Notes under the pieces: model-generated | Told to the model about the DNA's origin: nothing | The model's input: only the letters and a program-made list of their open reading frames with translations | Database searches by the model: none | Source of the DNA: an uncultured Gammaproteobacteria bacterium | GTDB lineage: Bacteria > Patescibacteriota > Patescibacteriia > UBA11705 > JABHMO01 | Assembly: GCA_964565345.1 (NCBI GenBank) | Contig: CAZMEQ010000001.1 | Span: forward strand, 9,838 to 73,837 | DNA length: 64,000 nucleotides | Direction of reading: 5' to 3' | In this document: piece after piece, positions 1,515 to 50,765 of the stretch | Layout of the letters: each line of letters opens with the position of its first letter | How positions within the stretch are numbered: the stretch's first letter is position 1 | Translations under genes and position numbers: made by a program

Positions 1515-2453
1515 GTGTTGAAAAAAGAAGTAAAATTGGGTATAATTAAATTTATGAATAAAAAAATAATAGTAGTACAAGGACCTACCGCCAGTGGCAA
1601 ATCATCTTTGGCTCTTAAACTAGCCCAAAAGTTTAATGGATTTTTGATTTCCGCGGATTCACGCATGGTTTATAAAGGAATGGATATAGGGACAAATAAA
1701 GATAAGGTCGAGTGGGTGAAGGACAAATTTTTTGTTCAGGGAGTGGAGGAAAAAATGATTGATCTAATACCCCCGGATCAAGATTATTGTGTTGATGATT
1801 GGGTTAAGCAGGTACGTTCAATAATTAAGGCTGACAAAAGGTTGCCAATTATTGTGGGCGGGACAGGTTTTTACACCCAAGCTTTAATTTATAATTTTAA
1901 GCTACCTGTTGGTAAAAATGCTAAGTTACGCGAACTATTGGAGAGGGAATTGGTAGAAAAGGGCATTGATGATTTGGTTAAGCAGATTCAAAAAATCGAT
2001 CCTGATATCGAATCAAAGATTGATATTCATAATCCACGACGTGTTGTGAGAGCCCTGGAAATTTGTTCACAAACACAAAAACCACTGGAACGTATAGCCG
2101 GAAAGCCGATCTATGATGTTTTACAGCTGGGCGTGAGTTTTGACCGAGAAAAATTATACGAAAAAATAGATAAACGAGTTGATGAAATGATAAAAGAGGG
2201 CCTAGTTGAGGAGGTGCAAGGGCTATTAAAACAAGGATATACAAAAAATATTCCAGCCATGACGGGCATTGGTTATCGGCAAATTGTGGAGTACCTAGAA
2301 GGCTCTAGAACGTTTGAAGAAGCTATTGATTTGATAAAAAGAGATACTCGCCGTTATGCTAAACGCCAAATCACTTGGCTAAAAAGAGATAAAACGATCC
2401 AGTGGGTTAAGAGCCTAAGTGAAGCGGAAAAAGTATTAAAGAAATTTATCTAA
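1515..2453 (+). CDS. miaA: tRNA dimethylallyltransferase (tRNA isopentenyltransferase)
   Basis: P-loop IIVVQGPTASGKSSLALKLA followed by SADSRMVYKGMDIGTNK, typical of the MiaA N-terminus. About 300 aa. Confidence 0.9.
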   Translation: MLKKEVKLGIIKFMNKKIIVVQGPTASGKSSLALKLAQKFNGFLISADSRMVYKGMDIGTNKDKVEWVKDKFFVQGVEEKMIDLIPPDQDYCVDDWVKQVRSIIKADKRLPIIVGGTGFYTQALIYNFKLPVGKNAKLRELLERELVEKGIDDLVKQIQKIDPDIESKIDIHNPRRVVRALEICSQTQKPLERIAGKPIYDVLQLGVSFDREKLYEKIDKRVDEMIKEGLVEEVQGLLKQGYTKNIPAMTGIGYRQIVEYLEGSRTFEEAIDLIKRDTRRYAKRQITWLKRDKTIQWVKSLSEAEKVLKKFI

Positions 2454-2479
2454 AATTAGATAAATTTCTTTGTTTTTAC

Positions 2480-2508
2480 TTGATTTATATCAAAAAACAT
2501 GCTATAAT
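2480..2508 (+). promoter_or_regulatory. sigma70-like promoter driving the GC-rich gene 2566..3072
   Basis: TTGATT at 2480-2485, 17-bp spacer, TATAAT at 2503-2508 with an upstream TGC (extended -10, TGCTATAAT). It lies in low-GC DNA directly abutting the high-GC ORF. Confidence 0.5.
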
Positions 2509-2565
2509 ATAATGTTCGGAGTTGAATTCCGATCGATCAATCCAATTCAAGAAGGAGGTGTTCTC

Positions 2566-3072
2566 ATGAAACGCATGATGCGTTCGATCCTGGTTCTCGT
2601 TCTGGCGGTGGTGTTCTGCAGCGGCTGCGACTTCATCATGGTAGACCCGTACTCCTGCACCTACGACGAGCAGTGTGGCGACGGTCACTACTGTGATCTG
2701 GACAGCTACACCTGCTTCCTCGTCGCCTGGGAGTTCGGTGGCCCCAACTGGTGTTTCGAGGATTCCCAGTGCGGTCCCGGCTACGTCTGCAACCCTGCCG
2801 ACAATTTCTGCTACGAGGAGGGGAACGTAGGGTACCATCCGGAGGATCAGAACTACTTTACTGGGTGGGATGAGAGCACTGGGCAGTGCAAGAACCAGTC
2901 GCACTGTCGCCCCAACGAAATCTGCGCCAACGGCTGGTGCACGCTTCCGGCAGGTAGCCACAACGGCAACGAGCCGGGCTACTACGACAACGATGGCCGG
3001 TGCCAGGACCACACGCAGTGCGCCAGCGACGAGGTCTGCGCCAACGGTTGGTGCACCGAGGCGCATTGGTAG
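2566..3072 (+). CDS. secreted cysteine-rich repeat protein (signal peptide; four C-x5-6-C-x5-C-x5-6-C modules, two ending CANGWCT); high-GC island 1
   Basis: RBS GAAGGAGGTG lies 6 nt before ATG 2566. The N-terminus is MKRMMRSILVLVLAVVFCSGC. Repeats include CKNQSHCRPNEICANGWCT and CQDHTQCASDEVCANGWCT. G+C is far above the flanks, and the antisense shadow ORFs are typical of a high-GC gene. Confidence 0.7.
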   Translation: MKRMMRSILVLVLAVVFCSGCDFIMVDPYSCTYDEQCGDGHYCDLDSYTCFLVAWEFGGPNWCFEDSQCGPGYVCNPADNFCYEEGNVGYHPEDQNYFTGWDESTGQCKNQSHCRPNEICANGWCTLPAGSHNGNEPGYYDNDGRCQDHTQCASDEVCANGWCTEAHW

Positions 3073-3080
3073 ACAACAAA

Positions 3081-3112
3081 GGCCCCCCGATTCCCAAGTG
3101 AATCGGGGGGCC
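3081..3112 (+). terminator. perfect GC hairpin terminator of island 1
   Basis: GGCCCCCCGATTC ccaagtg GAATCGGGGGGCC, a 13-bp perfect stem immediately after stop 3070-3072. T-rich DNA follows. Confidence 0.7.
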
Positions 3113-3127
3113 TGTTCGTACATTTTT

Positions 3128-4681
3128 TTATTTTGCTAAATATTCTTGCAATAGTTTTTCTGTTACCTGCGGATCTGCCTTCCCCTTGGTTTCGCGCATA
3201 ATCAAACCGAGAAAATATTTTATCACCACCGTTTTTCCTGATTTATATTCAGCGACTTGTTCTGGATATTCGGCTACGGTTTTTATTATTATGTCGTTTA
3301 AAGCGCCTTCATCGCTAGTTTGAGAGAGGTCTAAATCTTCCATTATGTGTGAAGGGTCGGCTCCGGTTTCGGACATTTTTTTTAAAATAGTTTGAGCGGC
3401 TGCGCTATTAATTTTACTTTCATAGACAAGACAAATAAATTCGGCAAAATTTTCAGCCGTTATGTTACTCGAGTTAAAAGAAAGTCCAGATTCAGAAAGC
3501 AAAGGGAGGTATTTATTAACGAGCCAGTTAGAAACCAATTTGATTAATTTCGTTTTGTTATTAGCCCAAACTTCATCCTTGTTGCCACTAACATTATCGA
3601 GAGTTTCGATCCAATCCTTTAACTCAGTGATGACGTTTTCAGTAAACGAGGCCAATTTTTTATTTTCAGTTATTATTTTAGCTTCCTCGCCCGTGAAACT
3701 GTACATGTCCACAAAGCGACGTCTTTTATCTTGAGGGAGCTCGGGTATGGAAGATTTTATTTCAAGAATTTCTGCTTCGGTAATGTTTAATGGTGGCAAA
3801 TCTGGCTCGGGAAAGTAGCGATAATCGCTTTCGCCTTCTTTAACACGTTGGCTTATGGTTGTGCCACTAGCCTCGTCCCAACCGCGAGTTTCTTCTTTCT
3901 CCGGTGGAGTATTAGCTAACCAAAGGAGAGTTTGTCTTTCGACTTCATAGGCGAGCGCGCGTTCCAGCGCTTTAAAGGAATTGATGTTTTTTAATTCTGT
4001 TTTGGGGTAAAGTTTTTTGTCACTGACTGGTCGTAAAGAAATATTGCCATCACAACGCAGCTGTCCTTTTTCCATGTCTGCATCAGAAACATTTAAGTGG
4101 CGCATAATCAGTTGCAACTCTTGCCCAAAGGTTTTGGCTTCTTGCGGGCTGGAGAGGTCCGGTGCAGTTACAATCTCAATGAGTGGCGCTCCGCCACGAT
4201 TATAGTCAATTAAAGTTCCATCGCTGATATGCGTCGATTTGGCGGCATCTTCTTCCATATGCAAACGGATAATGCCAATTCTTTTTAGTTGTGTTTCATC
4301 TGTTAAGGAGCCAGCTAAACCATCACGAGCCTGCCAGTTTATAACCAAAGACCCACTTAAAGCGAGTGGTTTGTCGTATTGGGAGATTTGGTAGCCTTTA
4401 GGTAAGTCAGGATAAAAATAATTTTTCCGATCGAATTTGGTAAATTGAGTAATACTACAATTTAAAGCTAGGGCCGCCTTTATGGCCATGTTTACAGCTT
4501 CTTCGTTAATGGTGGGTAATACTCCTGGGTGACCTAAGCAGATAGGGCAGACATTGACATTGGGCTCCTTGGGGTCATTTTCGTTGGGGCAAGCACAAAA
4601 CATTTTAGTTTTTGTTTTGAGTTGAACATGGAATTCTAGCCCAATTATAGCTTCTAATTTCATAGGATAATGGTTAATCAA
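3128..4681 (-). CDS. gatB: Asp-tRNA(Asn)/Glu-tRNA(Gln) amidotransferase subunit B
   Basis: N-terminus EAIIGLEFHVQLKTKTKMFCACPNE is GatB-like, plus a C-terminal GatB/YqeY-like tail. 517 aa. Confidence 0.9.
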   Translation of the reverse strand: MINHYPMKLEAIIGLEFHVQLKTKTKMFCACPNENDPKEPNVNVCPICLGHPGVLPTINEEAVNMAIKAALALNCSITQFTKFDRKNYFYPDLPKGYQISQYDKPLALSGSLVINWQARDGLAGSLTDETQLKRIGIIRLHMEEDAAKSTHISDGTLIDYNRGGAPLIEIVTAPDLSSPQEAKTFGQELQLIMRHLNVSDADMEKGQLRCDGNISLRPVSDKKLYPKTELKNINSFKALERALAYEVERQTLLWLANTPPEKEETRGWDEASGTTISQRVKEGESDYRYFPEPDLPPLNITEAEILEIKSSIPELPQDKRRRFVDMYSFTGEEAKIITENKKLASFTENVITELKDWIETLDNVSGNKDEVWANNKTKLIKLVSNWLVNKYLPLLSESGLSFNSSNITAENFAEFICLVYESKINSAAAQTILKKMSETGADPSHIMEDLDLSQTSDEGALNDIIIKTVAEYPEQVAEYKSGKTVVIKYFLGLIMRETKGKADPQVTEKLLQEYLAK

Positions 4682-4746: not shown

Positions 4747-6087
4747 TTATGAAGAATAATGTTTTTTATACTTGTTCTTGCAATGACGGCACAGTGCTAT
4801 GTATTGTTTGTCTCCCACCAAAATTTTTCCATCTAGTTGTTGTCTAGCGTTATTATCTAGCCAGCTCTTATTAGCTGTTTGACTCCCACATTCTACGCAA
4901 ACGGCTAGTTCTTTAGTTACAAATTCTGCTTCCACCATCAAAGCCGGTACTGGTCCAAAACCTTCATCGTCAAAAGTTTGATCTAAGCCGACAACAATAA
5001 CCCGCAACTTATAATCTTCAGCCAATCTTTTGCAAACTTGGACCAGGGAAAAATGGCAGAAATGTGCTTCTTCAATCACGACTGTAGTAACTTTTGGGTT
5101 ATATTGTTCGATATATTGGAGTATTAAGCTAGGTTGATCTTTGGGGAACTCAATGGCCGAAAAAACTTTGCCATTGCGGCTAACTAATTTCCCGGCAGTA
5201 TTAATATTCGCACCGGTTTCAGAAATAGTAATTTCTCGTTTTGATTCCTGTGGAGTAAAGATTAAAACTTCACGATTTTTTGACAAAAGTTCTTTTTCAA
5301 TTCTTTTGGCCGCTTCAGTGCTTTTGCCAGAAAACATACAGCCGCAAATAACTTCTATCCAACCTTCTTTGTTGGTTTCCATGATAGGTGGTTTTACATT
5401 TAAGAGTTGTTCTACTTCTTTCCAAACAGCGTTTTGTATTTCTTCACGAGTCATAATGCTATTGTTTCTGGTACATTCAATAAGCTTAAAGTTTGGATAA
5501 CTGGCAATTTCTAAATATGTTTGTTCGGCTCGTCTTAGGTGTTCAATATCTTCTTCATGAATGTCTTTTGTTTTGCCTTTCCAATCTTCGCGATGTCGTT
5601 CTTGGGCTAATTGTTGTGCGATATGCGAATCAACATGCAAAATGATATTCAAATCTGGCTGCGGAATTTTAAAAAGATTATATTCTAAATCGTAAAGCCA
5701 GTCGAAAAAGACTTTGCGTTCTTCGCTGTCATGGAGCTTTGCGCCTTGATGTCCCATGTTGGCTGAAACATAGCGATTGCTTACAACTATTTTACCTTCT
5801 TCGAGCCAGCGGCGTATTTTAAAGCTGGCATCATAACGGTCGCAAGCATAAAAGATTGAAGATATTTTGGGGTTGACTTGATCAGCTGTGCCATATTTGC
5901 CACTCAAGTATTCTTCCACTAATCCTGCCGATTTTGTATTGTATTGAGGGAAATCAGCGATTTCTACAGCAAAACCACGTTGCTTTAGGTTTTCTAAAAG
6001 TAGCGAGAACTGGGTTGTTTTTCCAGAACCGTCTGTCCCATCAATAACAATAAATTTTCCAGGCAAGTTTTGCATAAATTTATTCAT
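4747..6087 (-). CDS. fused thymidylate kinase (N-terminal) / thymidine kinase (C-terminal) bifunctional protein
   Basis: N-terminal half has FIVIDGTDGSGKTT, a P-loop and a CDRY motif (Tmk). C-terminal half has ICGCMFSGKSTE, VIEEAHF, GLDQTFDDEGF and a terminal C-x2-C...C-x2-C zinc ribbon (type II Tdk). Confidence 0.8.
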   Translation of the reverse strand: MNKFMQNLPGKFIVIDGTDGSGKTTQFSLLLENLKQRGFAVEIADFPQYNTKSAGLVEEYLSGKYGTADQVNPKISSIFYACDRYDASFKIRRWLEEGKIVVSNRYVSANMGHQGAKLHDSEERKVFFDWLYDLEYNLFKIPQPDLNIILHVDSHIAQQLAQERHREDWKGKTKDIHEEDIEHLRRAEQTYLEIASYPNFKLIECTRNNSIMTREEIQNAVWKEVEQLLNVKPPIMETNKEGWIEVICGCMFSGKSTEAAKRIEKELLSKNREVLIFTPQESKREITISETGANINTAGKLVSRNGKVFSAIEFPKDQPSLILQYIEQYNPKVTTVVIEEAHFCHFSLVQVCKRLAEDYKLRVIVVGLDQTFDDEGFGPVPALMVEAEFVTKELAVCVECGSQTANKSWLDNNARQQLDGKILVGDKQYIALCRHCKNKYKKHYSS

Positions 6088-7066
6088 TTATAATCCCTTT
6101 GGTAAAAGGAACCTCCTTGTGGATTAGCTCGATAATTTTTAGCGTGAATGGATTGTTTATTTTACTCAGTTCAAAAAAACCTTGCAAATCAAGATCAAGC
6201 AACGCGGTTTGTTTAACACCTAGAGGGAGTACATAGTGATTATGGGTTTTTTCAAAGTGTGCTTTAATACGATCTAGAATTTTTATCACTTCAGGATAAT
6301 GTTTTGTTTCGTTAAGCCTATTGCTAGTGTCTTTTAAATTTTGGAAATTTGGTTGTCGAATAATCAGGCTGAATTTCCCCGTTGTAAAAAGGGGAATAAG
6401 ATCAAAAAGAGCAGTTTTTATTTTTAGAGTGCAAAAGGGTTTAGTGAAAATTATTTTTGGTATTTTGTAGGCTGTTTCTCGTTGGCAAATTTGTTCAATA
6501 TAATTTTCTTTTTGCTCCAATGTCATTAAGTCTATCTTTTCTGATATTTTCGCTATTGTTTCTGATTTAGATTGTAAGAGATGGTAAAATATTATTTTGT
6601 TTTCTATGGAGTGATCGAGATCAATTAGATTTATATCTCCAGAGCTGTCCATCTGAGGTGTAACCGAGTTGCTAATTGGTTCATTCTTATGTTTTATTGT
6701 CGTTGATTCCAAAATAATTTTCTCGGCTATGTTTTTTAGTTCATAGCTATTACTGTGCGACCACTTATGTACTAGCTGTAACCAATCTCCGGTAGGAATA
6801 AGAAATTCTAGCTGTACTAATCGGCCTAATGGGACTAGCTCAGGTAAATTAAATTGTTGGGCACTTCTTAATAATAAGTCAGTTAACTCAAAATATTTTT
6901 GTCTATCGGAAAAATTATCATCGACATAACAATCATTTCTTTCTAGGTACCAAAATTTCAAAAGCGCACTATTGGTACAAATTTCAATTAAGCTCCAATA
7001 AGACAATCCTGCAATATTAACGCGGACGATATCCTCCGTAATATTTGTCACTTGGGTCTCTGGCAT
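6080..7066 (-). CDS. hypothetical protein embedded in the deoxypyrimidine operon
   Basis: 328-aa ORF with no recognisable motifs. It overlaps the downstream gene by 8 nt and lies 1 nt from the upstream gene, so it is co-transcribed. Confidence 0.55.
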   Translation of the reverse strand: MPETQVTNITEDIVRVNIAGLSYWSLIEICTNSALLKFWYLERNDCYVDDNFSDRQKYFELTDLLLRSAQQFNLPELVPLGRLVQLEFLIPTGDWLQLVHKWSHSNSYELKNIAEKIILESTTIKHKNEPISNSVTPQMDSSGDINLIDLDHSIENKIIFYHLLQSKSETIAKISEKIDLMTLEQKENYIEQICQRETAYKIPKIIFTKPFCTLKIKTALFDLIPLFTTGKFSLIIRQPNFQNLKDTSNRLNETKHYPEVIKILDRIKAHFEKTHNHYVLPLGVKQTALLDLDLQGFFELSKINNPFTLKIIELIHKEVPFTKGIINE

Positions 7067-10271: not shown

Positions 10272-10955
10272 TTACTTAATTTCCAGCTTGATGCCAGGTC
10301 CCATGGTGGTGCAAAGAGTAGCATTTTTGATATATACACCCTTTGATGTCTCTGGTTTCACTTTTTTGACAGCATCGATGAAAGTTTGAAAGTTTTCCAC
10401 CAACTGAGCATCATTAAGGCTCAATTTCCCAACTATTTGATGGATATTGGCCGTGTCATCATTTTTAAAGGCAATTTTACCTTTTTTAAGTTCGCCAATT
10501 GTTCTGCCGAGGTTTTGTGTGATCGTTTCGTTCTTTGGTGAGGGCATTAATCCTTTGGTACCAAGCATTCTGGCCAGAGGGGCCAAATTTTTCATGATTT
10601 CTGGGATGGCTACGGCTATTTCAAAGTCGATTTTACCTGATTTTTGTAGTTCAGCTAGGTTTGATTCTGTGTAGATGACGTCAGCTCCAGCGGCCTTTGC
10701 TTCGGCGGCTTTTTCCTCGGTTACAAAGGCAGCTACAACTTTTGATTTACCAAAGCTATGAGGCAAAACAACAGTACTGCGCACTTGTTGGTCCCCCTTT
10801 TTAGGGTCAATGCCAAGGCGTAGATGAACTTCCACTGATTCATCAAACTTTTTACCAGCAAGAGTTCTTGATAAAGTGACAGCTTCAGAAATGGAGTAAA
10901 GTTTGTTAGTTTCGATTTTAGCAGATTGCTTTTTGATTCTTTTTGATTGTGCCAT
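10272..10955 (-). CDS. rplA: 50S ribosomal protein L1
   Basis: GKKFDESVEVHLRLGIDPKKGDQQVRSTVVLPH is typical L1. 227 aa. Confidence 0.9.
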   Translation of the reverse strand: MAQSKRIKKQSAKIETNKLYSISEAVTLSRTLAGKKFDESVEVHLRLGIDPKKGDQQVRSTVVLPHSFGKSKVVAAFVTEEKAAEAKAAGADVIYTESNLAELQKSGKIDFEIAVAIPEIMKNLAPLARMLGTKGLMPSPKNETITQNLGRTIGELKKGKIAFKNDDTANIHQIVGKLSLNDAQLVENFQTFIDAVKKVKPETSKGVYIKNATLCTTMGPGIKLEIK

Positions 10956-14535: not shown

Positions 14536-14676
14536 CTATTCTAGCATAAAAGAATGGCAAAGTGAAGTCTTTAATACACAAAAATTTTCGTAAACAGGGC
14601 GTTTTGTGTTATAATTTAATTGTTTATAAAAGTACATATTCATGATTATATTCTTGAATAGGTACTAACAAAAAAT

Positions 14677-16701: not shown

Positions 16702-16772
16702 TCTCTTGGGTTGACTAAAATAAGTACTTTTGGTATAATCCTTCTCGATATTAAGAAACTAAGTTTTCGTAT

Positions 16773-20126: not shown

Positions 20127-21077
20127 ATGAGGAAAAACATCCTCACCCTGTGCCTGATCGTCCTGTCCCTGGCGGCCTGCTCCACGAAGGAGAAGCCCGC
20201 CGACCCCGCGCCTGTCGCGGTGGCGCCCGTGCCCGAGGTCTGCACCATGGACAAGGCCAAGGCGCAGGTCCAGTACCGGGGCTTCGATGTCGCGATCGAG
20301 GGCGACACCCTGGTCTTCACCAAGGTGCTCTCCGGCGCCGACGGCCAGCGCCTCGGTCGCGAGATGCACGAGTTCAAGGTCGAGGACGACCAGGGCCAGT
20401 GCAAGCTGACCGAGTGCGTTGCCAGCCGCGAGGTCTCGGGCGAGAAGCTCGAGAATCTGTTCTGCCAGAAGCGTTCGCGCTTCTACAAGAACGGCGCGCT
20501 GGTCTGGGAGGACACCCTCCTCAAGGACAGCCAGTGGCTGCGCAGCTACGCCGGCCTAGACAAGGTCCTGATGGACGCGCCCAACTGGGCTTCGTCCGAT
20601 GGAATGGACATCTACATGACCTGGGTCTTGCGTTCGGCCGACAAGGCTGTGCGGGTGCCGGTCTGGGGCGTCCGGGCTATCTGGATCCGGGAGGGCGACG
20701 ACTACACCCTCATGGGCGGGGAAGTCGTCCTCAAGAACCCGAAGCGCGCCCCCACACCCGAGGAGGTCGTGACCTTCCTGCGCACCAACGCGCAGGGCGA
20801 GGTCAACACGCGTGGCGTCCTGTACCCGGTCTCCGGGGAGACGTTCACGGCCTATCTCTCGTACCTCAAGGACGAGGATAAGGGCTGGGAGCGAGACCAC
20901 GCCGGCGACAGCGAGGCCATGCTGGCCCACTTCGACGGGCCGGTCAAGCTCTCGCGTGGCCAGACCTGGCCGCTGGAGCGCGTCTTCCAGCACCGCGGCA
21001 CCCAGCAGTCCCGGCTGCCCAACGTGGACCCCGGCTTCCTGCCGGGCTTCCCGCTGGTCCCCAAGCTGGGCCAGTGA
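20127..21077 (+). CDS. lipoprotein of unknown function; high-GC island 2
   Basis: RBS GGGAGGT precedes ATG 20127. The N-terminus MRKNILTLCLIVLSLAACS has a canonical lipobox (L-A-A-C). G+C is far above the flanks. The ORF track's upstream extension to 20058 is not supported. Confidence 0.7.
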   Translation: MRKNILTLCLIVLSLAACSTKEKPADPAPVAVAPVPEVCTMDKAKAQVQYRGFDVAIEGDTLVFTKVLSGADGQRLGREMHEFKVEDDQGQCKLTECVASREVSGEKLENLFCQKRSRFYKNGALVWEDTLLKDSQWLRSYAGLDKVLMDAPNWASSDGMDIYMTWVLRSADKAVRVPVWGVRAIWIREGDDYTLMGGEVVLKNPKRAPTPEEVVTFLRTNAQGEVNTRGVLYPVSGETFTAYLSYLKDEDKGWERDHAGDSEAMLAHFDGPVKLSRGQTWPLERVFQHRGTQQSRLPNVDPGFLPGFPLVPKLGQ

Positions 21078-25792: not shown

Positions 25793-26014
25793 AAAGTTTT
25801 TTCCTTGTCATGCTGAACTTGTTTCAGCATCTGGAATGTAATTAGCAGATCCTGAAATAAATTCAGGATGACACCTGGATTAATTTCGTAATCAGAGGAT
25901 ATCATATTACTATAAATTTGGCAAGAATAGTGGTCTTTTGAGGGTGGAAACGTCTTTTGTGGATAAAGGGGGCAAGACTTTAAAAAACATGTGCTATAAT
26001 ATCACTAGAATAAC

Positions 26015-26560: not shown

Positions 26561-27052
26561 ATGACCGAGAAGAAGACGTGTCTGCAGGTGGAGAAGGAGA
26601 TCCGAGCGGGTCTGCCCGTCGGTTTCGCTGAGGCGGTGCGCTTCGACGTGCGCCAGTCCAAGAAGGGCTTGCGTGTCGTCGTGCCGAACCACCGGCTCGG
26701 CAAGATCGCGATCACCGCGACGTGCTTCAATGGCAACAGCGACCTCGTCGGTCGCACGATCTCCCACTTCACCCAGATCGTCCCCGAAGGAACCGTGGTC
26801 GAGGCCCCGCGCAACGTGGTGTGTGACCGGGTTCGCCGGGCGATTCGTGCCACGCTGCCGAAGGATTACGCGACCGCGGTGCGCTTCGATGTTCGTAGCG
26901 CTCGTGATGGCCTGGCCGTCATGATCCCGGCTCACCGCGCCAACGGCATCTACATCGATCGGCAGCGCTTCGAGCTGCCCGACCCCGATCGCCTCGTGAC
27001 CATGGCCGTCCGGCACATCTGCCAGTTCGTGCCCACGAACGCCACCGTCTAG
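26561..27052 (+). CDS. small protein built from two tandem ~70-aa repeats; high-GC island 3
   Basis: RBS GAGGAGGAG precedes ATG 26561. Repeat 1 is KEIRAGLPVGFAEAVRFDVRQSKKGLRVVVPNHRLGKIAI. Repeat 2 is RRAIRATLPKDYATAVRFDVRSARDGLAVMIPAHRANGIYI. No signal peptide. Far higher GC than the flanks. Confidence 0.6.
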   Translation: MTEKKTCLQVEKEIRAGLPVGFAEAVRFDVRQSKKGLRVVVPNHRLGKIAITATCFNGNSDLVGRTISHFTQIVPEGTVVEAPRNVVCDRVRRAIRATLPKDYATAVRFDVRSARDGLAVMIPAHRANGIYIDRQRFELPDPDRLVTMAVRHICQFVPTNATV

Positions 27053-27132: not shown

Positions 27133-27206
27133 AAAAACAATAGTTGTTCACGGGAAAAGGAGAAGTTTTGTTTAATAGAAAGCCGGTTATTTGCTATAAT
27201 CAAGCT

Positions 27207-28037
27207 ATGATAAATTTTTTGCATACATTTCATCCCACACCAATTATTTTTCAAATCGGTCCATTGGCTGTTCATTGGTATGGGTTCCTCATGGTTATTG
27301 GAGGTCTATTAGGCTTTTATTTAATTTTGAAATTAGCTGAAAGATATAAATTAGATAAAAAGTTTTTTGAAGATCTTTTATTTTGGTTTGTTATTGGGGC
27401 TATTATTGGCGCCAGAATCTATTACGTCATTTATGCTTGGCCAATGTATAAAGAGAATCTATTAGACATCCTAAAAATTTGGGAGGGTGGGTTAGCGATA
27501 CACGGAATTATGCTCGGTGGGTTTATTGCAACTTTTATTTATTGTCGAATAAAGAAAAGAGATTTTTTGCTTACAGCTGATTTAGCGGTAACAGGGTTAG
27601 TTGCCGCGCAGATAATTGGCCGAGTTGGAAATTATTTCAATCAAGAAATTTTTGGGTTACCAACAAATTTACCGTGGGGCATACCAATTGATCCCATTTT
27701 TCGTCCGGAGCAATATGCGCAGTTCCAATATTTTCATCCCACGTTTATCTATGAGTCATTGGGGAATGTTGTGATATTGGCGATATTACTGTTTGTCCAT
27801 TACTACCGATTTAAAAGAAAGGAATTTAATCCTGGACAAATATTCTTGTTTTACCTCGTATTGTATTCTTGTTTGCGCTTTAGCCTAGAGTTTTTGAGAA
27901 TTGATTATAGTCCGATCTTTTTTGGGATCCGGTGGGCAATGTTTTTTAGTCAGGCTATTTTCATGATGAGTATTTTAATTATCATGTGGAGAGATTTATT
28001 TATAAGGTTAGAGCTTGTCAAAAAACAAAAATCGTGA
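27207..28037 (+). CDS. lgt: prolipoprotein diacylglyceryl transferase
   Basis: IFQIGPLAVHWYGFLMVIGGLLGFY ... GARIYYVIY ... IWEGGLAIHG are Lgt signature blocks. Confidence 0.85.
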   Translation: MINFLHTFHPTPIIFQIGPLAVHWYGFLMVIGGLLGFYLILKLAERYKLDKKFFEDLLFWFVIGAIIGARIYYVIYAWPMYKENLLDILKIWEGGLAIHGIMLGGFIATFIYCRIKKRDFLLTADLAVTGLVAAQIIGRVGNYFNQEIFGLPTNLPWGIPIDPIFRPEQYAQFQYFHPTFIYESLGNVVILAILLFVHYYRFKRKEFNPGQIFLFYLVLYSCLRFSLEFLRIDYSPIFFGIRWAMFFSQAIFMMSILIIMWRDLFIRLELVKKQKS

Positions 28038-37584: not shown

Positions 37585-38460
37585 CTAGTCGAACGGAACA
37601 CCTAAGATTCGGTTGCTGTCGTTGTCCGGTCTGGCCGATGCCGCCGTGTGAACGGCAAAGCCTTGCAGTACTTTCCGGCATTCGCAAGGAGGAAGCTTGT
37701 CCATGACGCAAAGAACTTGAGCGACCATGTTGTCGGTGAAGGAACCGAAGTTGGCCAACCCAGATTTGACTTCGTCGGCCGTGACAGCTTCGCCATCGCG
37801 CCAGGCATCATAATCCGAGGGCATGGCTACCACGGCATAGCTGATACCGGCTTCGCGTGCGAGAGCAGCCTCGGGTAGGGCGGTCATGCCAATTACGGTA
37901 GCGTCTGGAACAGTGTTACGGAAGAAGTGTGATTCGGCTGCGGTGGAGAACTGTGGCCCTTCGATGACCACATAGGTCCCCTTGGTGTGGACTTGCTTGG
38001 GGGCGCAACGCCGCGCACATTCGATGAGCGTTTCGCGCCACGGGGTGCAGAAGGGTTCACCCATTGGTACGTGCACGGCTAGTCCTGTGTCGAAGAAGGT
38101 TCGTGCGCGTAGCCCCTTGGTGAAGTCGAAGAGTTGGTCGGGGATGACGATGTCTTCACCAGGTGCAATGTAGGCTTGAAGGCTACCGACTGCGCTGAAG
38201 GCTAGGATGTGTGTGACACCCAAACTCTTCAGCGCGTAGATGTTGGCTCGATAGTTGACCTGTGATGGTGCGTACTCGTGTGCTTGTCCATGTCGTGGCA
38301 ACAAGACAACTTCGTGGCCAGTACTGAGTCTGGCAACAATCGGATTGGCCGAGGTGAGGCCAAAAGGAGTCATGCGAGGGAATACTTGCGTTTGATCGGC
38401 CGGGAGTTCGAGCAGCGCAGTGCCACCCAGGATTCCCAGTTTGGGTGTTACAGAAGTCAT
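37585..38460 (-). CDS. mtnP: S-methyl-5'-thioadenosine/purine nucleoside phosphorylase (MTAP/PNP family II); high-GC island 4
   Basis: N-terminus MTSVTPKLGILGGTAL (MTAP GIIGGSGL-type motif). HGQAHEY ... NIYALKSLGVTHI ... VIGMTALPEAALAREAG blocks. RBS GAGGT precedes ATG 38460. Very high GC. Confidence 0.75.
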   Translation of the reverse strand: MTSVTPKLGILGGTALLELPADQTQVFPRMTPFGLTSANPIVARLSTGHEVVLLPRHGQAHEYAPSQVNYRANIYALKSLGVTHILAFSAVGSLQAYIAPGEDIVIPDQLFDFTKGLRARTFFDTGLAVHVPMGEPFCTPWRETLIECARRCAPKQVHTKGTYVVIEGPQFSTAAESHFFRNTVPDATVIGMTALPEAALAREAGISYAVVAMPSDYDAWRDGEAVTADEVKSGLANFGSFTDNMVAQVLCVMDKLPPCECRKVLQGFAVHTAASARPDNDSNRILGVPFD

Positions 38461-38589
38461 GCCGGACCTCATTGTTGAAGGGCAAAACAGGCTTTGAGCC
38501 AAGTATAATTTTAGCTTAAATTAGTAGAAAATGCAAAAAATTATCTGGGTTGAAAAGAGAGTCTTTTTCTGGTAAAATAATGACACACT

Positions 38590-40291: not shown

Positions 40292-40365
40292 TCGGGGATC
40301 GTCTAATGGTAGGACAGCAGGTTCTGGCCCTGCTAATCTTGGTTCGATTCCAGGTCCCCGAGCCA
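40292..40365 (+). tRNA. tRNA-Gln (anticodon CUG), CCA encoded
   Basis: Manual fold: acceptor TCGGGGA/TCCCCGA, D-arm GTC-TAATGGTAG-GAC, anticodon stem GCAGG/CCTGC with loop TTCTGGC (CTG), T-arm CTTGG-TTCGATT-CCAGG, discriminator G, then CCA. Confidence 0.75.
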
Positions 40366-48363: not shown

Positions 48364-49038
48364 TCAGTTCTTGCGCCCTCCCTTGCCCATGATCTTGAGC
48401 AGCTGGAGGAAGAGGTTGGCGATGTCGAGGTAGATCGCGACGGCGCTGTCCACCGCGTTGTCCAGGGTTCGCGGCAGCTGTACCGCGCGGTTCCAGTCGT
48501 AGATGATGTACAGGGTGAACAGCAATGCAGCCGCGTAGTCGATGAAGGGCCAGTCGTAGAGGTTGTTGCTCACTCCGAAACTGGCCGCGATGAGCTGTCC
48601 GAAGCGAACGAAGACGAGCACGGTGAGCGCACCGAACAGGTAGCCGCCCCAGCTCAGGAGGAGCGTGGGGAAGGCGACTCCGATGATGCTCATGACCACG
48701 GTCACAGCTGCGGTGGCCACGAGTGCGTTCACGACCACGGCGCTCTGGTACAGGTTGACCGTGGGGCCCATGATGGCACCCAGGCCGCAGACCACCATCA
48801 GGTAGCCCACCAGGCTCACCAGCCAGTTGTCGCTGCCCATCGCGATGAAGATGCCGATGATCGGGATGACCAGGCCCACCCCCAGCGCGGCCCAGATGTT
48901 GGGCTGCCAGGGCATGGTGAGGAAGGCGATACCGGCGGAGATAATGAGCCCCACCATCGTGAAGCCCGAGACCGCGAAGATGTACTCGCGGAGGCTGAGC
49001 TCCGAACCGATGCCTCGTTGTTCCGAACGTTCCCAAAC
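48364..49038 (-). CDS. Bax-inhibitor-1/YccA (TMBIM) family integral membrane protein; high-GC island 5
   Basis: Seven predicted TM helices and a C-terminal ...NLFLQLLKIMGKGGRKN typical of the BI-1/YccA family. The start was chosen at MVWERSEQRG; the upstream in-frame extension is possible. Very high GC. Confidence 0.65.
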   Translation of the reverse strand, partial: VWERSEQRGIGSELSLREYIFAVSGFTMVGLIISAGIAFLTMPWQPNIWAALGVGLVIPIIGIFIAMGSDNWLVSLVGYLMVVCGLGAIMGPTVNLYQSAVVVNALVATAAVTVVMSIIGVAFPTLLLSWGGYLFGALTVLVFVRFGQLIAASFGVSNNLYDWPFIDYAAALLFTLYIIYDWNRAVQLPRTLDNAVDSAVAIYLDIANLFLQLLKIMGKGGRKN

Positions 49039-49331
49039 CATGCTGGAAAGACCTATCTGACCCTCCACTTTTATAGGGAATTCATCTGTCCGAAATGGAC
49101 TTAATATTGTAATATAAAGACTAGTATTTGTCAAGGTAGGAGTTTTTATGTTTTCACCTAAAATTACACCTTATATTGACATTTTAGTCGTAATGCGCTA
49201 TACTTAAGATGTTTGTTAGGTGCTCAAAGAGTTTCCAAGGCCAAAGATCTTTAGTCTTTCGTGCGGAAGAAAGTTATTTGAGGTAAAGTGTCGACCTGCA
49301 ACATTTTATTAAAAAGACTAAGTACAGTACT

Positions 49332-50632: not shown

Positions 50633-50765
50633 AGAATTTTCAATTAAGTTAATTTTGAAAAGCTTATATACAAATTAATTATTACATATACAATTATAGC
50701 ATACTTTTTATTATTTGTCAAACATTTTGTCTAAATTTAGTTAAAATTTTGCGAAATTATGAGAA

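Follow-up and report, generated by a model that had tools for sequence, protein, structure and literature searches.

Bacteria of the candidate phyla radiation (CPR, or Patescibacteria) are believed to live in attachment to host cells, and to our knowledge the surface molecules responsible for this are almost entirely uncharacterised. Genes of atypical GC content are routinely read as products of recent horizontal transfer. A GC-rich locus in an AT-rich genome is found in Borrelia burgdorferi, where the vlsE/vls surface lipoprotein locus evolves by recombination. Small cysteine-rich units of disulfide-directed beta-hairpin type (DDH) follow the consensus Cys-X4-19-Cys-X2-(G or P)-X2-Cys-X4-19-Cys (PMC3381931). 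Here we analyse a cysteine-rich gene that lies between miaA and gatB in a stretch of 64,000 nucleotides (contig CAZMEQ010000001.1, positions 9,838 to 73,837, assembly GCA_964565345.1), referred to below as the window. The reading that we favour, and consider reasonably probable, is that this is a real, independently transcribed Parcubacteria (CPR/Patescibacteria) gene for a clade-specific, disulfide-stabilised surface binding lipoprotein, with conserved GC-richness.

A cysteine-module protein with an export signal

The coding sequence spans positions 2566-3072 of the + strand, from ATG to TAG, and encodes 168 amino acids in a single-gene unit. A longer listed open reading frame (2470-3072) starts at a TTG that falls within the promoter, and the ATG at 2566 matches the start methionine of the orthologues in the alignment. 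The N-terminus of the protein is MKRMMRSILVLVLAVVFCSGC, exactly as quoted in a preliminary description of this DNA. Two of the 18 cysteines fall in the signal peptide and lipobox, and the remaining 16 are arranged in the mature part as four modules:

2566-2628, + strand: signal peptide (residues 1-20) and lipobox-like F-C-S-G-C, in which Cys21 would be the lipidated +1 residue
2656-2715, + strand: module 1, residues 31-50, CTYDEQCGDGHYCDLDSYTC, C-x5-C-x5-C-x6-C; the best conserved segment of the family
2752-2811, + strand: module 2, residues 63-82, CFEDSQCGPGYVCNPADNFC, C-x5-C-x5-C-x6-C
2821-2844, + strand: conserved linker motif G-[HN]-V-x-Y-H-P-E, residues 86-93; also present in a metagenomic variant (L087, see below)
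2887-2940, + strand: module 3, residues 108-125, CKNQSHCRPNEICANGWC, C-x5-C-x5-C-x4-C; Asn at the G/P position of the DDH consensus
3001-3054, + strand: module 4, residues 146-163, CQDHTQCASDEVCANGWC, C-x5-C-x5-C-x4-C; duplicate of module 3

When the mature sequence was shuffled 200,000 times, two modules arose in 23 shuffles and three or more in none. The preliminary description had proposed an exported protein of four such modules, and the modules, their 16 cysteines and the CANGWCT endings of the last two (EICANGWCT in module 3, EVCANGWCT in module 4) are all present; its single spacing formula gives way to the two spacings listed above, one for modules 1 and 2 and the other for modules 3 and 4. 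It had also suggested that the repeats are disulfide-knotted, but four cysteines per module permit two disulfides and a DDH-like hairpin, and no knot. A 63-nt direct repeat (2880-2942 and 2994-3056, 75% identical) holds modules 3 and 4, which we read as a diverged tandem duplication. Relatives of the protein carry four or five modules with the family consensus xxCxxDSxCxxGxxCxxxDGxCY, and in the family alignment all 16 module cysteines are invariant, together with G40-H41-Y42 and Y90-H91-P92. The protein is rich in aromatic residues (22 of the 147 mature residues), Gly, Asn and Asp.

Three Lys or Arg residues lie within the first seven positions, followed by an 11-residue hydrophobic core with a maximum 10-residue hydropathy of 3.73, and the basic n-region and hydrophobic h-region are conserved across all family members. 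A rule of the PS00013 type was applied to the lipoboxes ([LVI][ASTVI][GAS]-C, with the Cys at positions 15-35). It is passed by three of the five family variants, with LAGC, FSGC and LVSC, and their cysteine aligns with Cys21, which is invariant in the family; variant L088 has CLAC, with a Cys at -3 as in the window. After the lipobox cysteine the orthologues share a conserved C-D-[LFV]-x-x-V-[ND]-P segment. The window also contains lgt (27144-28037; PF01790, 230 bits, 3.2e-68). Because the canonical lipoboxes of the orthologues align with Cys21 and lgt is present in the window, lipid anchoring is favoured over free secretion, and the product is most likely an extracytoplasmic, lipid-anchored lipoprotein. 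The signal peptide reported earlier is therefore retained as an export signal, its type being that of a lipoprotein, so that a freely secreted product is less likely.

Modules 1 and 2 and most modules of the orthologues fit the DDH consensus, and G occupies the G/P position in 10 of the 16 family modules that were aligned. The protein appears DDH-like in its sequence pattern, and we claim membership of no family for it. Hidden Markov model searches for families of cysteine repeats, as had been proposed in the preliminary description, gave weak matches only, and no curated family was convincingly matched. Whole-protein scores for PF04706 (Dickkopf_N; 27.6 against a threshold of 25), PF01683 (EB; 24.5 against 24.3) and PF23416 (DUF7107; 27.3 against 24.6) exceed their thresholds by 0.2-2.7 bits solely as sums of partial stretches, and no hit extends over more than about half of its profile. 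For Dickkopf_N three such stretches are summed, the best of which spans profile positions 30-51 of 51, and the full domain of about 51 positions and 10 cysteines was not found. The orthologues P0001, P0002 and L087 fall below every threshold of these three families, with no more than 19.2 for Dickkopf_N. TIGR04201 (Myxo_Cys_RPT) matched residues 63-80 with 17 bits (E 0.0048), under its 25-bit cutoff. No zinc-finger, ferredoxin or metallothionein family was matched in Pfam or NCBIfam, and this includes the intracellular zinc fingers against which the preliminary description had set its own reading. When a profile of the modules was compared with PDB, weak matches in the range E 0.001-0.01 were obtained, among them Jingzhaotoxin (a spider toxin, E 0.0012), a four-module eggshell-membrane protein and EETI-II (E 0.01). 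The DDH fold is an antiparallel hairpin of two strands with disulfides 1-3 and 2-4. In an AF2 model a hairpin spans Cys3-Cys4 of each module, at a confidence too low to count, and the Foldseek list for this model, none of it significant, consists largely of small proteins with disulfides, among them scytovirin, knottins and the N-terminal region of Dkk4.

Inheritance and transcription of the unit

When 1.84 billion representative proteins were scanned in full with HMMER, only two real relatives came up, P0001 (E 5e-30) and P0002 (E 4e-13), and the family amounts to four sequences in two clusters among about 15 billion, in addition to the window copy. A word-indexed homologue search returned nothing with the window protein and only the family itself with P0001 or the family alignment. 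Exact look-up of the protein, and of GatB and the MTAP-like and Tmk-Tdk proteins encoded elsewhere in the window, found no identical entry on record. The relatives are confined to related Parcubacteria, which provides the taxonomic distribution that the preliminary description had wished to see. P0002 is a hypothetical protein of Parcubacteria group bacterium GW2011_GWC2_38_7 (L082). There, too, miaA and gatB flank the gene, and the Tmk-Tdk fusion and nucleotide-metabolism genes known from the window come next. P0001 and the variants L087/L089 and L088, from JGI metagenome contigs, also lie between miaA and gatB. The slot miaA -> gene <- gatB is thus occupied in L082/L091, L085/L086, L087 and L088. 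The window backbone is itself patescibacterial, since among GTDB species representatives its GatB finds the best match at 66% identity, and the top matches are all CPR metagenome-assembled genomes. Because the slot is shared within the clade, yet in the more distant L001 (GatB 66%) the gene is absent and miaA and gatB are directly convergent, 47 nt apart, a single gain in the ancestor of a small clade is indicated. The region 2400-3200 contains neither a mobility gene such as an integrase nor a tRNA, and no direct repeats flank the site; for the gene itself, phage and plasmid records, viral contigs, PHROGs and PADLOC gave no match. In L082 an extra AT-rich open reading frame of 91 amino acids (10562-10837, - strand) lies between the cysteine-rich gene and gatB, and it is without counterpart in the window.

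The signals that delimit the unit are as follows:

2440-2477, + strand: AT-rich hairpin AGAAATTTATCT / AGATAAATTTCT across the miaA stop codon, followed by TTGTTTTT; probable miaA terminator and upstream boundary of the unit
2480-2508, + strand: sigma-70-type promoter with -35 TTGATT, a 17-nt spacer and extended -10 TGCTATAAT (TG-n-TATAAT); 10 of 12 matches, TG present
2515-2565, + strand: 5' untranslated region (UTR) of about 51 nt, with an inferred start and a 5'-proximal hairpin TCGGA-GTTGAAT-TCCGA (2516-2532)
3080-3129, either strand: GC-rich hairpin of 14 bp with a 6-nt loop; arms 3080-3093 and 3100-3113, 100% complementary

The miaA hairpin is kept in L082, L085 and L087; L085 shows a compensatory change in it (GTCT/AGAC), and the change seen in L082 is compatible with G-U pairing. 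Since four genomes conserve the hairpin, with one base pair changed in a compensatory way, we read it as probably the intrinsic terminator of miaA, although its stem is not G-C-rich. The promoter of the cysteine-rich gene is orthologous and conserved in the same three loci, and translation would start from a perfect 8-nt Shine-Dalgarno sequence, AAGGAGGT (2552-2559), with the ATG 6 nt downstream. At the 3' end, T-rich runs flank the hairpin on both strands (3123-3129 on the + strand, TTGTTGT on the - strand), for which reason it is assigned to both genes and is probably a bidirectional terminator common to the cysteine-rich gene and to the convergent gatB; the gatB stop codon is at 3128-3130, and the hairpin lies 14 nt past it. 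The CCCCC/GGGGG core of this hairpin is conserved in L082, L085 and L087. The miaA stop region and terminator, the -35 element, the TGCTATAAT box, the start of the UTR and the 3' hairpin core can be aligned across four genomes, and with orthologous signals on both flanks the whole unit has been inherited in place.

A unit with a promoter of native type and a strong hairpin had been described previously, and both elements stand; the pairing of the hairpin is perfect as stated, over 14 rather than 13 bp. The TGCTATAAT box was said to recur at four native sites, which holds for two of them; those given as 14601 and 16725 carry the related extended -10 boxes TGTTATAAT (at 14607) and TGGTATAAT (at 16731). 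Elsewhere in the window TGCTATAAT occurs at 25992, 27192 and 53296 on the + strand and at 50701 and 55543 on the - strand. In total TGnTATAAT has 11 sites in the window (for example 2500, 14607, 16731, 25992, 27192, 30377 and 53296) against 3.6 expected, a number reached in none of 100 shuffles, and the organism seems to rely on extended -10 promoters.

Two further candidates at the locus were rejected. Folding of the mRNA gave a z-score of -3.2, which is accounted for by the terminator hairpin, and a structured RNA was not accepted; no Rfam family was matched in or near the unit. An antisense open reading frame of 212 amino acids (2485-3123, - strand) is considered a by-product of the GC-rich coding sequence, because GC content at third codon positions (GC3) far exceeds that at first positions (GC1), and this in turn that at second positions (GC2), in the + frame only, and because the protein of the + frame is conserved with in-frame indels.

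The cysteine-rich protein has diverged faster than its neighbours, with 44-58% amino-acid identity between lineages against 70-86%, and with a nonsynonymous divergence (dN) of 0.4-0.5 against about 0.1-0.2, about four times higher. Identity between close alleles is discontinuous. Between L085 and L087 the gatB DNA is 100% identical, yet identity drops to about 77% across the gene and, over the 3' part of miaA, to about 87%. L085 and L088 are 100% identical over about 680 bp, from the start of the mature coding region through the terminator into the 3' end of gatB; outside this stretch identity falls to about 65-70% over the signal-peptide region and to about 85% over the remainder of gatB. The sharp changes between 100% and about 65-87% identity occur within 1-2 kb, with breakpoints inside the cysteine-rich gene, at the boundary between signal peptide and mature protein, and inside gatB. 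This pattern indicates that the locus is a recombination mosaic, whose alleles are exchanged by homologous recombination among diverged, co-occurring strains.

GC-richness and its explanations

The cysteine-rich gene has a GC content of 60% and a GC3 of 82%, compared with a GC3 of 0.23-0.46 in all backbone genes, those for ribosomal proteins included. GC1, GC2 and the ratio Arg/(Arg+Lys) are also shifted, and the UTRs have 43% (5') and 58% GC against 33% in backbone intergenic DNA. The preliminary description had called the gene unusual for the backbone genome, and in composition it is strongly so. The sole tRNA gene of the window, tRNA-Gln(CUG) at 40292-40365 (+ strand), reads CAG, the Gln codon used in 7 of 7 cases in the cysteine-rich gene.

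High GC3 is found in every orthologue (L082 0.75, window 0.82, L087 0.90, L085 0.95), on contigs of about 37-43% GC. The lineages concerned are well separated: GatB is 83-86% and MiaA 70-81% identical in amino-acid sequence, and the proportion of synonymous differences in these two genes, 0.69-0.80, corresponds to synonymous saturation. In the flanking genes codon identity at conserved residues (0.42-0.52) is little higher than the 0.40-0.45 predicted by codon usage, and third-base identity at four-fold sites is 0.32-0.42. For the cysteine-rich gene, conserved residues share their codons just as often as codon usage alone predicts (in one comparison 41 times, with 40.0 predicted). Because a neutral foreign segment would decay to a GC3 of about 0.3 over a saturated divergence, the GC-richness is held in place, maintained rather than left over from a recent transfer. 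This persistence was traced for the cysteine-rich gene alone, the four other GC-rich units of the window (see below) being without relatives in any fetched locus. In a scan of 80 other Patescibacteria gatB loci GC-rich islands were rare. A polarised comparison of A/T-to-G/C with G/C-to-A/T changes among the close alleles L085, L088 and L087 offered few informative sites, two of them synonymous.

What might have produced such a composition can be considered in the light of these data. An island just acquired from a GC-rich donor, for example one of the Myxococcota, in which similar cysteine-rich repeats occur, and not yet ameliorated would explain a GC3 of 82% over a backbone of about 31% and the GC-shifted amino-acid usage, and would agree with the weak TIGR04201 similarity (17 bits); absence from L001 also implies that the gene was gained at some time. 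We nevertheless regard a recent import as very improbable, since lineages with synonymously saturated flanks carry the gene in one and the same slot, between a promoter and a terminator that are orthologous, no homologue outside the clade was found among the 1.84 billion representatives, and neither a mobility gene or tRNA nor direct repeats mark the site. The gain is likely to be ancient and unlikely to be recent, and the foreign island implied by the preliminary description is not supported: at least four other related Parcubacteria sequences share the miaA-gatB slot, there is no outside homologue among those representatives, and the gene is equally GC-rich in all lineages. Very high expression, with translational selection favouring optimal codons, fits the near-consensus promoter, the perfect Shine-Dalgarno sequence and the strong terminator, as well as the finding that Cys, Asp, Tyr, Asn, His and Phe, whose C-ending codons match GNN anticodons, make up 40% of the residues. 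However, the low GC3 of ribosomal-protein and other backbone genes indicates that there is no genome-wide preference of this kind, G-ending GAG and CAG and GC-rich four-fold codons are preferred too, and GC1, GC2, the Arg/Lys ratio and the UTRs are shifted as well. The calculated shift in log-odds relative to the backbone is 1.9-3.7. Translational codon selection in fast-growing bacteria reaches, at its strongest reported, values at or below this range. Ordinary codon optimisation is therefore an unlikely cause, since ribosomal-protein genes lack the bias, the UTRs are also enriched and the shift is so large, and we rate it as quite improbable though ahead of recent import.

The nature of the protein also has to be weighed. 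Release after SPase I cleavage, as a free knottin-like effector (for example a toxin, a bacteriocin or a protease inhibitor), would account for the divergent lipobox of the window copy, for the best of the weak similarities, which involve squash trypsin inhibitors and the toxins of spiders or cone snails, and for modules that match the DDH consensus, the presumed source of knottins. Three of the five variants, however, have a canonical lipobox at the aligned cysteine followed by the conserved tether C-D-[LFV]-x-x-V-[ND]-P, the similarities to inhibitors are no better than E 0.001 in a comparison with PDB alone and are driven mainly by cysteines, and no immunity or export partner gene is adjacent; such an effector is unlikely, if the least so of the alternatives considered here. 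The 16 cysteines, the invariant His41 and His91 and the regular units of four cysteines would suit a metal-binding protein resembling metallothioneins or zinc fingers, with the cysteines as ligands rather than in disulfides. We give this hardly any weight, because the export signal is conserved in all members, the C-x5-C-x5-C-x4/6-C spacing lacks CxxC pairs, and the weak matches are all to extracellular disulfide domains, zinc-finger, ferredoxin and metallothionein families in Pfam and NCBIfam giving none.

Several observations weigh against the surface lipoprotein that we favour. The window lipobox, C-S-G-C21, is non-canonical with a Cys at -3 and fails the strict PS00013-type rule, and no LspA motif was found within the 64-kb window. 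Modules 3 and 4 keep the DDH spacing but have N or D in place of Gly or Pro. A whole-protein sequence search of PDB gave no match up to E = 10, the AF2 model, built from an alignment of three sequences, has a mean pLDDT of 50, and Foldseek of this model against PDB returned nothing at E <= 0.001. The extreme codon bias makes the gene's own synonymous divergence (dS) unreliable, and hence dN/dS is not interpretable. A binding or adhesin role is suggested by architecture and evolutionary rate, and glycan binding, for which the aromatic-, Gly-, Asn- and Asp-rich composition alone would speak, is speculative. For the force that holds the GC-richness in place, selection at the level of the transcript and GC-biased gene conversion are candidates only; the latter becomes a candidate because alleles are shuffled by homologous recombination.

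On the surface lipoprotein reading, the gene would have been inserted between miaA and gatB in the ancestor of the small clade and then inherited with its promoter and terminator. Its product would be exported through Sec, and Cys21 would most likely be diacylglyceryl-modified, tethering the protein at the outer face of the membrane. The mature part would form a string of four modules, each a predicted beta-hairpin pinned by two disulfides and resistant to proteases, and may serve as a surface binding or adhesion module at the interface of symbiont and host or of symbiont and environment, possibly in the manner of a lectin. Strains exchange alleles by homologous recombination, and beyond the cysteine scaffold the protein diverges about four times faster than its neighbours. 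Selection on the transcript or GC-biased gene conversion might keep the whole transcribed unit GC-rich against the AT-biased background.

Further GC-rich units and known systems

Four further GC-rich single-gene units lie in the backbone of 37-39% GC, and in each of them an AT-rich promoter close to consensus is combined with a UTR enriched in GC and with a GC-rich terminator hairpin:

20127-21077, + strand: lipoprotein of 316 amino acids, GC3 0.93, LAAC lipobox, no family match
26561-27052, + strand: protein of 163 amino acids, GC3 0.85, two halves 41% identical (E 2e-17), internal tandem duplication
37585-38502, - strand: MTAP-like phosphorylase, GC3 0.61, TIGR01694 at 258 bits, below the 275-bit cutoff
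48364-49134, - strand: Bax1-I family membrane protein, GC3 0.89

Each half of the 163-residue protein contains LP..[FY]A.AVRFDVR....GL.V..P.HR, and the protein has no signal peptide and matched no Pfam, NCBIfam, PHROGs or PADLOC family. With the cysteine-rich gene counted as island 1 and the units above as islands 2-5, neither viral contigs (islands 2 and 3) nor PHROGs and PADLOC (all four) gave a match. In L086 (6177-6704, equivalent to L085 1-465) a GC-rich DUF218 unit (PF02698, 4e-19) lies just upstream of miaA, with its own TTGACT...TACAAT promoter and hairpin terminator; it could be traced in no other genome. It is absent from the corresponding position in the window and in L082, so that the set of GC-rich units differs between relatives.

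These units raise a wider idea, which we advance tentatively and hold to be possible rather than probable: that this Parcubacteria lineage keeps a class of single-gene units, five of which lie in the window, at a GC3 of 0.6-0.95 in a tiny genome of 37-39% GC, by an undescribed mechanism that separates two compositional classes of genes. Candidate mechanisms would be selection on transcript composition (resistance to an AU-specific RNase or toxin, or a very long mRNA life), codon-based gating of expression, or unusually strong GC-biased gene conversion at recombination-active accessory loci. No description of such a stable compositional dichotomy, or of GC-rich or cysteine-rich CPR genes, was found in the searchable literature, which is not proof of absence. 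If the persistence seen for the cysteine-rich gene were true of the other units, composition-based calls of horizontal transfer in these genomes would be misleading, and some force, be it transcript-level selection or biased gene conversion, would shape a defined subset of genes beyond known codon selection.

Among the backbone genes, a 446-residue fusion of thymidylate kinase and thymidine kinase (Tmk-Tdk; 4747-6087, - strand), whose L082 orthologue is 84% identical and carries PF02223 and PF00265, heads a conserved nucleotide-metabolism cluster that includes a dCMP deaminase, a gene of the dCTP deaminase/dUTPase family, DHFR and ThyA. Two backbone open reading frames, of 405 amino acids (268-1485, - strand) and 328 amino acids (6080-7066, - strand), matched no Pfam family; the 328-residue protein is 45% identical to its positional orthologue in L082, its neighbours about 84%.

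We see in the cysteine-rich gene a new, very small protein family built from a known kind of mini-module, and in the apparently stable compositional dichotomy the part that is unusual. Interest is moderate for the protein and higher for the compositional phenomenon. A fast-evolving, recombining, clade-specific and predicted disulfide-armoured lipoprotein is a concrete candidate for an interface molecule, and it is small enough to express and solve.

Comparison with described systems places the protein near the DDH and inhibitor cystine knot peptides, that is, spider and scorpion toxins and squash trypsin inhibitors such as EETI-II, with which it shares the four-cysteine unit, modules 1 and 2 being an exact fit to the consensus. 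It differs from them in being bacterial and predicted to be lipoprotein-anchored, in having four tandem units, and in lacking a third disulfide and so a knot. Dickkopf N-terminal (colipase-type), EB and DUF7107 domains have 6-10 cysteines per unit, in contrast to four here. TIGR04201 is likewise a short repeat of the CxxDxxC...G..C type in exported bacterial proteins, but no whole-protein homologue of the window gene exists in Myxococcota or beyond one Parcubacteria clade. Small disulfide-rich lectins (scytovirin, hevein-like) resemble it as aromatic- and Gly-rich, disulfide-stabilised repeats, and scytovirin is the top Foldseek row; this match, at E 0.16 and TM 0.17-0.28 on a model of pLDDT 50, has no real meaning, and there is no sequence similarity. 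For the locus as a whole a parallel is vlsE/vls of B. burgdorferi, a surface lipoprotein gene that is much richer in GC than its genome, with frequent recombination and mosaic alleles. Unlike vlsE/vls, the window has no silent cassette array and no second copy, and its other GC-rich units include cytoplasmic and membrane proteins (MTAP, Bax1-I), so that the phenomenon would not be specifically one of antigenic variation.

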